The translations under genes were made by a program, and so were the position numbers. From the IMG/VR virus record IMGVR_UViG_3300013027_000005, positions 1-44,078 of that record: 44,078 bases of DNA. One strand, given 5' to 3'. Of the stretch, positions 10,143-14,287 are shown piece by piece. Under the pieces are notes generated by a model that saw nothing but the letters and a program-made list of their open reading frames with translations, was not told the origin of the DNA and did not search any database. The stretch comes from a virus. Positions within the stretch are counted from its first letter, which is position 1; each line of letters begins with the position of its first letter.

Positions 10143-10624
10143 CCCTTAAGGAACACACGAAGACGGGGGTTTCGGGCAACCAACTCGTAACGTCGGGCAA
10201 TGCGCTCCTGACACAACTTAACTGCTGTGTCCATGTTGTTTGCCTTGAGGAATGCCTTCTGTGTCCCAGGCCCCCAAGCCCCATCATCCGCCACGCCCAG
10301 CGCTCGCTGCATCAGCTTAGCACCACCACCCAAACCAAAGTTGACTACGGTATCAAAGTACACAATACCAAGGGGTTCATGCATTGTACCAGACTTACTG
10401 GGTAACCAGTACATCTCGTAGTAAATATCCTTCACCTCCTCAAGCTCAATGTTTCGCACTGCTCGTGGGCTCAAGCCCTGCTCCTTACGGTACTTGTTGT
10501 AGGTGTTCTGTGTCACACCGTAGTTGGTGGCCCCTCCACTATCTGCTACGTGGTTTGAATACCCACCTTCCCATTTAAGTGTAAAAGCCAGAGCGTCTGA
10601 AAATGTCATACAAGATGTCTCCAT
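10091..10624 (-). CDS. GH108-family lysozyme (N-acetylmuramidase) with a PG_binding_3-like C-terminus; likely start at Met 10609
   Basis: FTLKWEGGYSNHVADSGGATNYGVTQ contains the EGGY catalytic motif, followed by FDTVVNFG and ADDGAWGPGTQKAF. Confidence 0.75.
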   Translation of the reverse strand: METSCMTFSDALAFTLKWEGGYSNHVADSGGATNYGVTQNTYNKYRKEQGLSPRAVRNIELEEVKDIYYEMYWLPSKSGTMHEPLGIVYFDTVVNFGLGGGAKLMQRALGVADDGAWGPGTQKAFLKANNMDTAVKLCQERIARRYELVARNPRLRVFLKGWLRRDNELTQYMKRFA

Positions 10625-11079
10625 TTTTTATTTCGGTGTATCAAGCTGATAGTAGAAGCATCAACTCCGTAAGAACGCGCAAGTTCCTGTTGACTTGTCC
10701 CAGCACACAGTTGTTTGCGTATGTTTTTGACATCATCCTCTGTTAGTTTAGCTTGAGCATTCAGAGTACCCTGCGCTTTGAATGCGCGTCCTTTAGTTAC
10801 CATGTCTCTGCTGTTATCTGTCTGGGTACCTGCAAACAGGTGCTTGGGGTTTATACAGGAAGGGGTGTCGCAAGTGTGGCACGCATGGATGTCCGGACCG
10901 AGAACCTCCCCTAGTTTGTGTTCAAGAACAATGCGATGTACCGCTTTAACTTTTCCATCTACTTTGAGATGTCCATATCCTTTGTTGTTTTTACAGCCCC
11001 ACCACAATACACACTCATCTCCAAAAGGTTGAGCAAGGCGTTCGAGTAGTTGCGGGGTACGGAGGTTGGGTCTACTCAT
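10606..11079 (-). CDS. Free-standing HNH homing endonuclease with a C-terminal helix-turn-helix
   Basis: CVLWWGCKNNKGYGHLKVDGKVKAVHRIV...HACHTCDTPSCINPKHLFAGTQTDN is an HNH_3-type signature. The C-terminal SQQELARSYGVDASTISLI is HTH-like. It is ATGA-coupled to the upstream membrane-protein gene. Confidence 0.75.
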   Translation of the reverse strand: MSRPNLRTPQLLERLAQPFGDECVLWWGCKNNKGYGHLKVDGKVKAVHRIVLEHKLGEVLGPDIHACHTCDTPSCINPKHLFAGTQTDNSRDMVTKGRAFKAQGTLNAQAKLTEDDVKNIRKQLCAGTSQQELARSYGVDASTISLIHRNKKWRHLV

Positions 11080-11391: not shown

Positions 11392-12031
11392 TTAGTGAAG
11401 GTCAGACCAGCGATGTCCGACGTGAAAGGTTGCGACGATAGGAACGGGAGCGATGTGTTGTGCGCTACCAAATGTCTTAGTCATGTAGTCACACAACGCT
11501 TCACCATTCGCAGTAGGACAGTAGCCCAACAACTCATCGTGTACACTCAAGGCCAGACGCGCACCCATGATGTGAATGGTGTCAAGACAGGTCAGTGTAA
11601 CGTCCTTAAGGATGTCGCCACTGCCACCCTGGAGTATGCCGTTGAACACCTGACGCTCAGCCCGTGACCTCAGCTCCTTGTTGTTACTTAGGAGTCCACG
11701 ATAGACAAGTCTGCGGCCCATAAGGGTGTGTATGACTCCTCCGTGCTTCCGGGCGTGGCTCCAAACCGCTTCCTTAAACTGTGTGATAGGCATGGAGTCG
11801 ATGAGTTTCTGTGCAGCTTGCTTGGTACATCCCATGATGGCAGCGACCTTTGGCGCAGCAGCTCCGTAGACGGTAGCGTACAAGATGCGTTTGGCGGTGT
11901 CTCGGTCGCATCCCCACTTCTCGACATTGACCTGGTGAGCATCGACATTAGCTCTGAAAGCTTCAGCATACTCAGCATATCCGAAATACTCTTCAAGGTA
12001 GTAGGCGAGAACTCGGAACTCGATATTCGAA
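11392..12031 (-). CDS. Family A DNA polymerase, exon 2 (motif A second half, motif B, motif C)
   Basis: The track ORF 11392..11883 starts at an artificial TTG. The same frame stays open upstream to 12069 and reads ...SNIEFRVLAYYLEEYFGYAEYAEAFRANVDAHQVNVEKWGCDRDTAKRILYATVYG..., giving IEFRVLA (motif A tail), RDTAKRxxYATVYG (motif B), AERQVFNGILQGGSGDILK and SVHDELL (motif C). Confidence 0.8.
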
Positions 12032-12751
12032 CCTTTGTGTTCAAGGAGGGGCGCTACACCCTCCTCCGGTTAGTTAACCCGCTCTGTGTTACCACAGAGA
12101 GCAGACTATATCTTCACCTCTTTCGAGGGCGTGGCGCTTCGGGCCGCTTGGCCCTACTCCCCGAAGGGATAGTCGTTAGGGGTTCACAAGCCTTCGATGA
12201 TGTCGCGAATGTTCACTGCGAGTCATCATTTGCAAGTTATCAATATCATTATCTGACTTACACTCATTCTTGTGATGGACCACATACCCGCTTGGTAGTT
12301 TATCTAGTCCGTGAGCGTTACAGTACACAGCGACATGCTCAGGTATCCGTCTCTGAGTTGTGTTGTACCATTCTGGTTTGACTACCGAGTAGTAACCATC
12401 AGGCTCAAGGCTTCTACCTTTCCAGTTGTGATGCGTCTCAAACCGTTTACCTGCCATTAACCCTAACTCTTTCTGACACACAGAACGTGTCCTGCGTTGT
12501 CGTTGTTTGAGTGCTTCAGGCTCATAGTTCAGTTTGAAGTACTTAGCTACCGTGGCGTAAGACACGCCTATAACGTTGGCTATCTGGTGGTATGAGTAGT
12601 CACCTTCGTAGTGACTGAGTATGTCATTAATGGTATCTTTACTTGTCCAGGTTGGCTTGAGCTTCCCACGGGATAAACCTCGTTGAGGTCTTCCCCCGTT
12701 TTCACCACGTTGCTCAATACATGTCACCATGCATTAGACCCTATCTAGTTA
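12032..12751 (-). mobile_element. Putative self-splicing group I intron (about 720 nt) carrying an HNH homing endonuclease ORF
   Basis: It interrupts polymerase motif A. The 5' exon end AGACCU can pair with the intron's GGGUCU 10 nt downstream, placing a U.G pair at the splice site (P1). An in-frame TAG follows 4 nt into the intron. The proposed last intron nucleotide is G (12032). The 3' 145 nt contain hairpins capped by UUCG, GAAA and GUAA tetraloops. Boundaries are inferred to within a few nt. Confidence 0.6.
12176..12730 (-). CDS. Intron-encoded HNH homing endonuclease (184 aa) with an N-terminal HTH
   Basis: The HNH motif is VVHHKNECKSDNDIDNLQMMTRSEHSRHH. The N-terminal YHQIANVIGVSYATVAKY is HTH-like. 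It lies between the two polymerase halves. Confidence 0.8.
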   Translation of the reverse strand: MVTCIEQRGENGGRPQRGLSRGKLKPTWTSKDTINDILSHYEGDYSYHQIANVIGVSYATVAKYFKLNYEPEALKQRQRRTRSVCQKELGLMAGKRFETHHNWKGRSLEPDGYYSVVKPEWYNTTQRRIPEHVAVYCNAHGLDKLPSGYVVHHKNECKSDNDIDNLQMMTRSEHSRHHRRLVNP

Positions 12752-13923
12752 AGGTCTCCTCCCCACATGACCACCTTTCCAGGGTTTGGTGTGTAGATGA
12801 GTCTACGCACCTCACCGCCAAGCTTACCACGGCGAGGTAAGTTCTGGAGGTTTGGTCGGCTTGAGCTAAGCCTTCCGGTGCGGGCGATACACTGGTTGAA
12901 GCTTCCACGAAGTATTTGTTTGTCATCAGTTTGGGTTCTGAATGTTTCAAGAAAGGTGCCAACGATGACGCCTATCTTGTTGTAAGCATTGATGTTCTGG
13001 GCGAGCGGGTTCCTCACGTCCACCAGGATGTCCTTGGATACCTTGGGTGCTTCCGTTTTCGTGAACACCTTGGGTTGCCAACCATACACCTGCGTGAGTG
13101 CTGCTGCTACCTGCTTGTCGCTGTCAGGGTTGAATGGTTCAAGTGGACAGTGGTTGTATACCACGTCAACACCAAAGCGCTCAACGTTCTTACTCGACTT
13201 GAAGCTACCACCCTCACCTTTATAGTCCGTAGGTTTAGCAGTGATGTTCCAGGGAATAATGTTGGTGATGCGCTTTTGGATGCGTGCTTGGGCATTGGTC
13301 AGTTGGCCATAGAACGGGTCCAGACTAGACTTGTCAATGACAATGCCTGTCGCCTCCATCTCCATAATGACTTCAATGTACGGCAGGTCAACGTTGTAGT
13401 AAAGCTCCAAGGCACGCTCATCCTCAGCCAGCTTAGCACTGAGATGCTTGTCAAGTTTGTGTGTCAGCTCACAGTCCCGCTTGCAGTACGCCATGAGCAG
13501 GTCCAGGTCCCAGAGTTGGGTAAACTCAAAGCCCGCTGCACTTCGTTCGTCGATGTACCCAAGGCGTATACACTCAGCACGATAGTCCATCTTGGCGTAC
13601 CCAAGGCGCTCGCCCCATGCCTCAAGCCCATGCTCCTGTCCTGTCTCAATACTGTACGACATAAGCATCGTGTCCTCATAGTCGTCAATGACTAAACCAT
13701 AACGACGCAACACAGCAACGTCAAAAGCAGCGTTGTGGAACACAGCAGTGTAGGTGTCAAAGTAATGCTGGAGCATGGCGATGGCCGCTGGCCCCCACGG
13801 AACACAACCAGAGTCATTGTCGTGTGCCCAGCCAACACAATGGATATCTGGGGGCTTACCTTTAGTAATAAAACCGTTCGTCTCGATGTCTATCGCACAT
13901 CGCTTCTTCATGGGGAAACTCAA
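12745..13923 (-). CDS. Family A DNA polymerase, exon 1 (3'-5' exonuclease plus N-terminal polymerase domain); the ORF ends at an intron-borne stop
   Basis: Exo I is CAIDIETNG, Exo II is HNAAFDVAVL and Exo III is YCKRDCELT. It also has RTGRLSSSRPNLQNLP. The ORF ends ...VVMWGGDLN*, in the first half of motif A. The proposed true exon end is 12752. The start is probably Met 13911. Confidence 0.85.
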   Translation of the reverse strand: MSFPMKKRCAIDIETNGFITKGKPPDIHCVGWAHDNDSGCVPWGPAAIAMLQHYFDTYTAVFHNAAFDVAVLRRYGLVIDDYEDTMLMSYSIETGQEHGLEAWGERLGYAKMDYRAECIRLGYIDERSAAGFEFTQLWDLDLLMAYCKRDCELTHKLDKHLSAKLAEDERALELYYNVDLPYIEVIMEMEATGIVIDKSSLDPFYGQLTNAQARIQKRITNIIPWNITAKPTDYKGEGGSFKSSKNVERFGVDVVYNHCPLEPFNPDSDKQVAAALTQVYGWQPKVFTKTEAPKVSKDILVDVRNPLAQNINAYNKIGVIVGTFLETFRTQTDDKQILRGSFNQCIARTGRLSSSRPNLQNLPRRGKLGGEVRRLIYTPNPGKVVMWGGDLN

Positions 13924-14287
13924 TGTAGGGTATCCTGACTAGGTAGTCGTAGCCGTCAGGTGCTGGGTAGAACACCTCAACCTCTCCAGTGTACGTCACC
14001 TGCTTGAGCCAGGGGATGCGCCTAGTTTTGTACTGGGGTTTGAGCCATCCAAACTGAAGGTCATGTGGCAACAAGCTCTTTATGTAGTCCCAACCAGACA
14101 CAGGATGTGTGTAGTTGTGGTGTTTTGTGTATTCATACGTCTGTTCAAACTTACGCTTGCCCACGGTCAGCCGCTTATGCATCATGTTTAGCACATAACC
14201 ACGGCCACGGGGGTCCTCCATGACGTGTGCCTCAACGTTTTGGCTAAGGGCAAACTTCTTAACTTCAGCTTCAATAACGTCTATCAC
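13862..14287 (-). CDS. Hypothetical protein (141 aa)
   Basis: ORF whose start is ATGA-coupled to the stop of the upstream endonuclease gene. Its 3' end overlaps the polymerase start. No motif recognised. Confidence 0.5.
   Translation of the reverse strand: MIDVIEAEVKKFALSQNVEAHVMEDPRGRGYVLNMMHKRLTVGKRKFEQTYEYTKHHNYTHPVSGWDYIKSLLPHDLQFGWLKPQYKTRRIPWLKQVTYTGEVEVFYPAPDGYDYLVRIPYIEFPHEEAMCDRHRDERFYY

Follow-up and report, generated by a model that had tools for sequence, protein, structure and literature searches.

Is the DNA polymerase of the uncultured virus recorded as IMGVR_UViG_3300013027_000005 encoded by one interrupted gene or by separate fragments? The window, i.e., the whole 44,078-bp JGI contig that we analysed, carries a T7-like gene set (primase-helicase, PolA, terminase, portal, capsid and tail fibre), and its family A polymerase gene on the minus strand is divided by 720 nucleotides (nt) that contain an open reading frame (ORF) for an HNH endonuclease. 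An initial annotation of this locus had proposed a group I intron and had left a polymerase working as two separate polypeptides as the alternative. Ever since SPO1, phages have been known to carry HNH-bearing group I introns in their family A polymerase genes. We conclude with high confidence that a splicing-competent group I intron of subgroup IA2 interrupts the polymerase gene inside motif A. The proposal of a group I intron is backed by the splice junction, helix P1, the core helices, homology, covariance model R1, P3 complementarity and HNH homology, and the anatomy of the intron, its homology, its covariation and the exact restoration of the polymerase ORF are direct observations. The gene is composed of the following three parts.

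12752..13911, minus strand: exon 1 of the family A DNA polymerase (ORF list, Pfam, alignment A1)
12032..12751, minus strand: group I (IA2) intron, 720 nt (Rfam RF00028, homology to the introns of Yersinia phage Berlin and Xanthomonas phage CP1, model R1, helix table)
11392..12031, minus strand: exon 2 of the DNA polymerase (Pfam DNA_pol_A, gap-free alignment)

Exon 1 encodes the 3'-5' exonuclease domain (Pfam DNA_pol_A_exo1) and the N-terminal part of the polymerase domain and ends in ...GGD followed by CT, the first two bases of the Leu387 codon. It sits in a 392-codon ORF (13923..12745, minus strand) that closes with ...VVMWGGDL-N-stop; the ATG at 13911 is likely to be the polymerase start, as alignment A1 suggests, and a 141-amino-acid (aa) ORF further upstream (14287..13862, minus strand) overlaps this likely start by ~50 nt (13862..13911). 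Exon 2, whose frame opens at 12030 in the ORF list, completes the Leu387 codon with its first base and supplies the remainder of motif A, motifs B and C and the stop codon. The Pfam DNA_pol_A profile is divided contiguously between the two, with positions 23-153 on exon 1 and 160-380 on exon 2.

Joining 12752 to 12031 yields GGA GAC CT|T TCG AAT ATC GAG TTC CGA (junction ...GGAGACCT|TTCGAATATC), which reads GGDLSNIEFR as predicted by the initial annotation for a split exactly in motif A, and gives a coding sequence of 1800 nt that is in frame over 599 codons plus stop. The 599-aa product aligns without gaps across GGDL|SNIEFRVLA to 13 uninterrupted homologues (37-53% identity), and D386, L387, I390 and E391 fall in invariant columns. 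An alignment to solved Pol I large fragments likewise spans ...ADYSQIELRVLAH, a segment that we take to be motif A with its metal-binding aspartate. Since the gap-free alignment and the Pol I alignment both place motif A here, the break is located within one codon, past the second base of the codon next to the catalytic aspartate. The intron runs from U12751 to a terminal G, which had also been anticipated; two guanosines, 12033 and 12032, are candidates for this position, and only G12032 keeps the frame.

The signals at the 5' splice site comprise a guide helix and a stop codon.

12736..12757, minus strand: P1 (direct reading, pair check, Rfam alignment)
12745..12747, minus strand: UAG stop that ends the exon 1 frame two codons into the intron, within the P1 loop

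In P1, exon AGACCU (12757..12752) together with intron UA (12757..12750 in all) pairs with the guide UAGGGUCU (12743..12736). All eight pairs are standard: AGACCU lies opposite GGGUCU (12741..12736), followed by two intron pairs (UA/UA), and U12752·G12741 marks the 5' splice site. The AGACCU/GGGUCU pairing with its terminal U·G and the in-frame stop just inside the intron (UAG at 12747..12745) had both been noticed before and are borne out here. At the other end, the tail UGAACA-N5-G is common to the introns of Berlin, CP1, LUZ24 and IMG/VR locus L117.

The 3' half of the ribozyme contains the elements by which its subgroup is recognised.

12104..12174, minus strand: 3' catalytic core (BLAST to CP1, Berlin and IMG/VR, alignment A2 with consensus fold, pair check)
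12174..12169, minus strand: P7 5' strand GACUAU, continuing into P7.1 CCC-UUCG-GGG, linker A-GUA and P7.2 GGGCC-AAGC-GGCCC
12136..12130, minus strand: P3' CGCCACG, continuing into P8 CCUC-GAAA-GAGG, joining segment J8/7 GAAGAU and P7 3' strand AUAGUC
12032..12099, minus strand: P9 CUCUGUG-GUAA-CACAGAG, weak P9.1 GGUU-AACU-AACC, P9.2 AGGAGGG...CCCUCCU and tail UGAACA-CAAAG-G

Within the stretch 12174..12130, GAAG lies between P7.2 and P3'. The UUCG, GAAA and GUAA tetraloop hairpins described in the initial annotation turn out to cap P7.1, P8 and P9, respectively. The 3' 147 nt (12178..12032) are ~71% identical to the polymerase introns of phages Berlin, Yepe2 and Yep-phi, and these alignments stop at the 3' splice site. 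Positions 12177..12134 are 95.5% identical (44 nt) to the CP1 intron, dozens of IMG/VR loci match the 3' half with 80-89% identity over ~83 nt, and the signature GACTATCCC-N3-7-GGGAGTAGGGCC occurs in at least 119 IMG/VR loci. In an alignment of 69 such 3' halves, the window among them (A2), P7, P7.1 and J8/7 are invariant, and P7.1-GUA-P7.2 is kept in the window. Compensatory changes affect 9 of the 24 pairs of the A2 consensus fold, which comprises P7, P7.1, P7.2, P8 and P9; P9 of the window (CUCUGUG/CACAGAG) is a fully compensated version of the usual CUGCAUG/CAUGCAG. Subgroup IA2 is recognised by P7.1 and P7.2 joined by GUA between P7 and P3' (PMC3428280), and the window intron, which has this arrangement, is therefore assigned to it. 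The minimum-free-energy fold of the isolated 3' 147 nt exceeds that of shuffled sequences in stability (z = -3.9) but does not reproduce the family structure, because the partner strands of P3 and P6 are missing, and was not used as structural evidence. The P7 placement of the Rfam alignment, in which the 5' strand falls at ~12620 and P7 and P3' enclose the ORF, was likewise set aside and replaced by the family-invariant GACUAU at 12174..12169, 3' of the ORF.

Where, then, is the 5' half of the core, when the HNH ORF begins almost at the splice site? The initial annotation had put this distance at about 20 nt, which is correct (21 nt), and had reasoned that most of the core would have to lie 3' of the ORF or within it, which is not the case: P1 to P6a occupy the first 98 nt of the intron and are overlapped by the first ~26 codons of the HNH frame. 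The core is thus not displaced, and the puzzle is resolved.

12718..12733, minus strand: P2 hairpin UGCAUG-GUGA-CAUGUA, which holds the AUG (12730..12728) of the HNH frame
12703..12709, minus strand: P3 5' strand CGUGGUG (7/7 pairs with 12136..12130, model R1, family covariation)
12668..12699, minus strand: P4-P5-P4' ACGGGG / ACCUC-AAC-GAGGU / UCCCGU, preceded by J3/4 AAA
12654..12667, minus strand: P6 5' strand GGG, AAG internal loop and P6a 5' strand CUCAAGCC, pairing with 12192..12180
12180..12192, minus strand: P6a 3' strand GGCUUGUG, AA and P6 3' strand CCC (pair check, family comparison)

The 5' architecture of the family consists of P2, an A-rich linker, P3, AA, P4, P5, P4', (C/G)(C/G)AAG and P6/P6a. 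BLASTN at word size 7 with the first 110 nt of the window intron found no similarity to family members, and a sequence-only nhmmer profile of the 5' core missed the window. We used a covariance model of the 5' core (R1), built from 38 family members with the window excluded and with the P3 pairing not encoded. R1 gives a single match on both strands of the 44 kb, at 12739..12658, which spans the full model with 37 bits and an E-value of about 1e-6, R1 E-values being rough (shortened calibration). The seven bases that R1 places as P3 pair 7/7 with CGCCACG at 12136..12130, the family position of P3', across a span of 567 nt. For the family, P3 5' strands were located by a sequence-only profile that is ignorant of P3', and they pair with P3' at 6 or 7 of 7 positions in 43 of 46 distinct combinations, compared to ~20% with shuffled partners; positions 2-4 of P3 show all four Watson-Crick pair types. 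P6 covaries as well, with CCAAG...AAGG in most members and GGAAG...AACC in the window and in two IMG/VR loci (L023 and L040).

The Rfam group I scan suggested in the initial annotation was carried out with RF00028, which matches 12761..12082 end to end (model 1-253) with 30.9 bits (E 1.2e-5 in a 1.4-kb search, 3.8e-4 in the whole 44-kb window), and this is the sole Rfam match with E <= 0.1 across the whole 44 kb. The score stays below the RF00028 gathering score of 50 bits, a curated operational threshold. Four known phage introns served as controls in the same kind of search.

Pf-WMP3 intron: 31.9 bits (RF00028); self-splices in vivo and in vitro (PMC3428280)
LUZ24 intron: 40.8 bits (RF00028); splicing seen in complementary DNA (PMC10914365)
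Yersinia phage Berlin intron: 26.1 bits (RF00028); annotated as a joined coding sequence
Xanthomonas phage CP1 intron: 64.3 bits (RF00028); ORF-less, the sole one above gathering

As the ORF-bearing controls score 26.1-40.8 bits, a sub-threshold score is expected for an ORF-bearing phage intron, and the threshold does not discriminate where a large ORF is inserted. Taken together, the ORF halves, the gap-free splice and the single Rfam match in the whole window are far beyond chance.

The insert also encodes a protein.

12176..12730, minus strand: HNH homing-endonuclease ORF, 184 aa (Pfam HNH_3, phrog_7545, homology to I-PfoP3I and to the ORF of the IMG/VR locus L068 intron)

The Pfam HNH_3 match covers residues 132-176 with 43.2 bits against a cut-off of 24.8 (E 3e-11), and phrog_7545 matches residues 40-180 (E 1e-27). 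I-PfoP3I, the characterised nicking HNH endonuclease of the cyanophage Pf-WMP3 polymerase intron (PMC3428280), is 32% identical over 144 aa (pairwise E 2e-14) and shares the C-terminal HNH and the N-terminal helix-turn-helix-like region. The closest intron-borne homologue is the L068 ORF (36% over 140 aa). A protein search returned only the ORF itself and one free-standing homologue (P0002). The HNH motif HH...N...N...H...HH is intact, and the ORF is free of frameshifts and stops. Its body lies inside the P6a loop. At the 5' end, codons 1-26 coincide with P2-P6a, and at the 3' end the final ~6 codons share sequence with P6a'/P6', the TAA stop adjoining P7 (TAACGACUAU), as in many ORF-bearing relatives; ORF-less relatives read CAACGACUAU. 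Thus the location of the ORF body in P6a is usual; only the 5' end stands out, where the frame stays open back into P2 and has its sole canonical start codon there. We consider it fairly probable that the HNH endonuclease is functional. It is a diverged member of the I-PfoP3I lineage that presumably recognises motif A DNA; its activity, its target site and the mode of its translation are inferred.

The observations that weigh against the reading of a working intron with a working endonuclease concern (i) the start of the HNH gene and (ii) the ribozyme and its splice-site context. With respect to (i), the homologues begin well inside the window ORF (M1 of I-PfoP3I and of P0002 at ~D32, M1 of L068 at ~S20, the phrog_7545 profile at codon ~27), with the conserved part of the protein beginning at about codons 27-32, and the window has no canonical start there. 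The only in-frame AUG and GUG of the frame, at 12730 and 12727, lie within P2; the AUG is situated in the 5' strand of P2, one codon past an in-frame stop and 15 nt past the exon-frame UAG. The sole Shine-Dalgarno-like bases upstream, UAGGGU, are the internal guide sequence itself. GGAGG and ATG are present in the P6a loop of Pf-WMP3 and L068, and the window has neither. In 30 other ORF-bearing members, counted where the P3 assignment is family-like (L104 and L122, with upstream starts, have P3 candidates that are not family-like and were left out), the ORF starts at least 32 nt after the start of P3 and never upstream; among members with a reliable P3, an upstream start (-21 relative to P3) occurs in the window alone. 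The gene could accordingly be poorly expressed or already decaying.

The rival that survives best takes up these points: the HNH gene would have lost its start and ribosome-binding site in an early stage of decay within the homing cycle, so that the intron splices and is no longer mobile. Such decay is a serious possibility, which we rate below that of a functional gene. The 31 extra open codons would arise by chance in about 1 of 4 cases, and the position of the homologous starts fits. Against decay, the rest of the ORF lacks any frameshift or stop, aligns over its full length to its homologues and preserves the HNH motif, and the in-frame AUG 15 nt past the exon-frame stop would permit termination-reinitiation. 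The N-terminal 26 residues may then be translated ribozyme, the product perhaps being made by re-initiation after the UAG.

With respect to (ii), the RF00028 score is below gathering, and the R1 E-values carry the roughness mentioned above. For P10, only U12031 can pair with A12742, which makes no convincing helix, and several helices are imperfect (U·U mismatch in P6a, bulged U in P8, 3-4 pairs in P9.1). A second intron in motif A was not found: 0 of 122 IMG/VR family hits have a motif A exon downstream, and the 4 IMG/VR and 69 metagenome hits to a pattern combining the UGAACA tail, a terminal G and S-[NQ]-[IL]-E-x-R are all chance matches or uninterrupted genes, in a scan that covers UGAACA-tail introns only and, for the metagenome collection, one without the window's contig, whose negatives are therefore not self-validated. 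The 5' splice-site context thus has no comparative support of its own. Catalysis and splicing by the ribozyme we infer from its anatomy, and homing from homology to I-PfoP3I.

From these imperfections one could construct a dead relic intron in a polymerase pseudogene of a defective or mis-assembled phage genome, and the contig is in fact a singleton from one metagenome. We regard this as very improbable: every core helix is intact, the positions that are invariant in the family (P7, J8/7, P7.1-GUA-P7.2) are kept, both exons are open and full length with all invariant polymerase residues present, the gene is the sole polymerase of a 44-kb genome that otherwise looks complete, and validated ORF-bearing introns do no better in Rfam. 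Weakest of all is the two-polypeptide polymerase with a free-standing HNH gene in between and no RNA splicing, to which the three separate ORFs of the gene callers, the JGI call of exon 1 as a separate 343-aa protein (P0003), the frequency of free-standing HNH genes in phages (one lies at 10606..11079 in the window) and the free-standing state of P0002, the closest HNH homologue in the protein database, would lend themselves, but which is effectively excluded. Upstream of the junction, the exon 2 frame extends over no more than 12 open codons, none of them ATG, GTG or TTG, and its first possible start is L438, so that S388-I437 including the invariant motif A residue E391 could never be made without splicing. 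Each of the 13 close homologues is a single chain, the break interrupts a codon, and a complete group I core, its halves verified independently, lies in between. Two other element types were also rejected: an intein or split-intein fractured gene (the insert stops two codons in, the upstream exon 2 frame extends 12 codons and there is no Hint domain) and a group II intron (no Rfam group II match with E <= 0.1 in the window, and the only ORF product is HNH).

For the splicing-competent IA2 intron, the following course can be proposed. The transcript would fold into a standard core, with the 5' half (P1-P6a) formed within 12757..12654 and the 3' half (P6a', P6', P7, P7.1, P7.2, P3', P8, P7', P9, P9.1, P9.2) within 12192..12032, the two being separated by a 461-nt P6a loop that carries most of the HNH gene. 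An external guanosine would attack past U12752, base paired with G in P1, and the released end of exon 1 would then attack past the terminal G12032, ligating the exons to CT|T. Ligation would restore motif A (D386-L-S-N-I-E391-F-R) and hence one 599-aa polymerase. Ribosomes on unspliced RNA would halt at the UAG two codons in and stay off the core, as in other phage introns. Homing would proceed as the homology to I-PfoP3I suggests: the HNH endonuclease would nick or cut polymerase alleles lacking the intron near the motif A DNA, and recombinational repair of the cut allele would copy the intron in.

A further-reaching reading, which we consider unlikely on balance, combines a functional endonuclease whose translation signals are buried in the ribozyme, acting as a switch between splicing and homing, with motif A as a new homing site of the lineage. 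The guide sequence in P1 would double as the Shine-Dalgarno-like bases and the start codon would be held in the P2 stem, 15 nt past the exon-frame stop, making ribozyme folding and endonuclease translation mutually exclusive. A ribosome coming from exon 1 would enter the intron, melt P1 and P2, terminate at the UAG and re-initiate to produce the enzyme, the first 26 residues of which would be a mere translation of P2-P6a. If true, the intron would contain its own switch, with splicing serving the host and homing serving the element, and motif A would be a new homing site for an I-PfoP3I-like lineage, 35 codons from the usual RLSSS/NLQN.

How far does this element depart from described ones? 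Examples in T7-like phages go back to PhiI and W31 (2004) and Pf-WMP3 (2012). Three insertion sites in the polymerase are listed, '674', '676' and '881' in E. coli numbering (PMC3428280). Direct reading places the introns of Berlin, CP1 and LUZ24 in motif B and those of Pf-WMP3 and L068 at RLSSS/NLQN, where the I-PfoP3I lineage has its other intron-borne members; the LUZ24 intron, considered as a motif A precedent, was dismissed for its location in motif B. The motif A site of the window is not among the sites that we found described, RLSSS/NLQN ('674/676') and motif B.

The Pf-WMP3 intron resembles that of the window in its host, a T7-like podovirus with the intron in a family A polymerase gene, in its ribozyme (UAAC start, UAGGG guide, P3-AA-P4...P4'-xxAAG-P6, P7.1-GUA-P7.2, GAUAUAGUC) and in the location of the endonuclease gene in P6a, where it overlaps core helices; an ORF in P6a is also reported for PhiI, W31 and Pf-WMP3 (PMC3428280). 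Both also have the exon-frame stop just inside the intron, UAA as the first intron codon in Pf-WMP3 and UAG two codons in for the window. The two differ in several respects. Pf-WMP3 is inserted at RLSSSxP|N(L/I)QN ('674'), and the window intron 35 codons downstream in motif A at D-L|S. P2 is missing in Pf-WMP3 and present in the window. In Pf-WMP3, the ORF has a GGAGG-ATG of its own within the P6a loop and continues 3' as far as P7-P7.2, whereas the window ORF ends just before P7 and reaches 5' to the AUG in P2.

The polymerase intron of PhiI and W31 is a self-splicing IA2 intron with I-TslI (Bonocora and Shub 2004, cited in PMC3428280), for which the Berlin intron (NC_008694) served as a stand-in. 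Berlin is likewise a T7-like phage with the intron in the polymerase gene; its intron is co-linear with the 3' 147 nt of the window up to the terminal G, and its ORF also lies in P6a with a TAA adjoining P7. In contrast, the Berlin site is in motif B (RDNAKTF|IYGFLYGAG), its endonuclease belongs to another HNH/EndoVII-type family and in our searches did not resemble that of the window, and the 5' halves have no detectable sequence similarity. CP1 is the best nucleotide match to the window core, over P7-P7.2, and has the same overall architecture, but its P3 differs from that of the window by four compensatory pairs, its site is in motif B (KVFSFQR|AYGAG), and a 26-codon remnant takes the place of the endonuclease gene. 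The L068 intron shares the IA2 ribozyme family, the family A polymerase gene and the ORF in P6a; its site, RLSSS|...NLQNMP, lies upstream of motif A, and its ORF, which has a GGAGG-ATG of its own within the P6a loop, reaches 3' as far as P7-P3'.

Intron-less relatives of the window were found at some distance. Its polymerase is most like those of freshwater cyanopodoviruses, with only ~28-35% identity; a megablast of the locus against GenBank phages matched 44-80 nt of the ribozyme core only, and an IMG/VR search for loci related to exon 2 found none. In a large protein collection, the nearest polymerases (52-53% identity) stem from two syntenic contigs (L130 and L131, with the gene order primase-helicase, PolA, GH108 lysozyme), and both genes are uninterrupted. 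The insertion site reads GGAGACCT|TTCG in the window, GGAGACCT|ATCC in one relative and GGCGACCT|GTCC, with one base different, in the other; an intron-less allele of a relative is GATGGAGACCTATCCAACATTGAAGC. The bases that pair with the guide are kept in both, the GGCGACCT relative retaining GACCT as the equivalent of AGACCU. This pattern of presence and absence is as would be expected of a homing element, in relatives too distant to date the event.

The polymerase gene of this contig, currently called in fragments, needs to be annotated as a single spliced gene. What is understood of group I introns does not change, and the element type is well known. The two twists are modest: the intron is inserted in motif A, and P2 harbours the sole start codon of the endonuclease frame. 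With the former, the most conserved carboxylate motif of family A polymerases joins the list of insertion sites, in keeping with the rule that homing elements are aimed at invariant catalytic DNA; the endonuclease may be of interest to collectors of sequence-specific nickases. The overlap of the ribozyme core with the 5' end of the endonuclease gene offers a tidy test case for the interplay of translation and splicing.

A second, free-standing HNH gene of the window (10606..11079, minus strand, 157 aa; phrog_1872 with E 8e-30, and phrog_59) lies two genes downstream of the polymerase and has no counterpart in L130 or L131. It looks like another recent homing-endonuclease insertion.

The same correction of annotation applies to the Xanthomonas phages CP1 (L003, NC_019933; 2326..2639) and phiXacJX1 (L004, same place), in which a 'DNA polymerase' and a 'hypothetical protein' are the two exons of one gene. 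They are separated by an unannotated, ORF-less group I intron of ~315 nt that splits KVFSFQR|AYGAG and scores above gathering. Its P6 loop contains a 26-codon CxxC mini-ORF, probably the remnant of an endonuclease gene. Throughout the family, the J6/7-P7 junction is mostly TAACGACTAT in ORF-bearing members, the TAA being the ORF stop, and CAACGACTAT in ORF-less ones (A2 and ORF-start table), so that a single base at J6/7-P7 appears to track the presence of the endonuclease gene.

Eight IMG/VR loci (L009, L020, L033, L034, L073, L086, L103 and L117) form an IA2 subgroup that splits a capsid-like gene 17-18 codons past its start (MSNSLLTIDMITRKALE|...NNLVLTRTVNRQYDDSFA...). Their ~178-aa ORF begins with an ATG located in P5 (3' strand) and continues through P4' and P6. 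Since these ORFs overlap the core, overlap between the 5' end of the ORF and the core is common in the family, though less extreme than in the window. The P1 of L009, L033 and L117 (GGAGAU|UAAC) resembles that of the window, but these introns were discarded as parallels for its site because they lie at the start of the capsid-like gene and not in a polymerase gene.

Three related phage polymerases, P0035 (934 aa), P0041 (856 aa) and P0042 (859 aa), carry in-frame inserts of 190-280 aa at motif B/RLSSS, the same hot spots that are occupied by the introns. The insert of P0042 opens with a weak Hint_2 match, and all three inserts are probably inteins.

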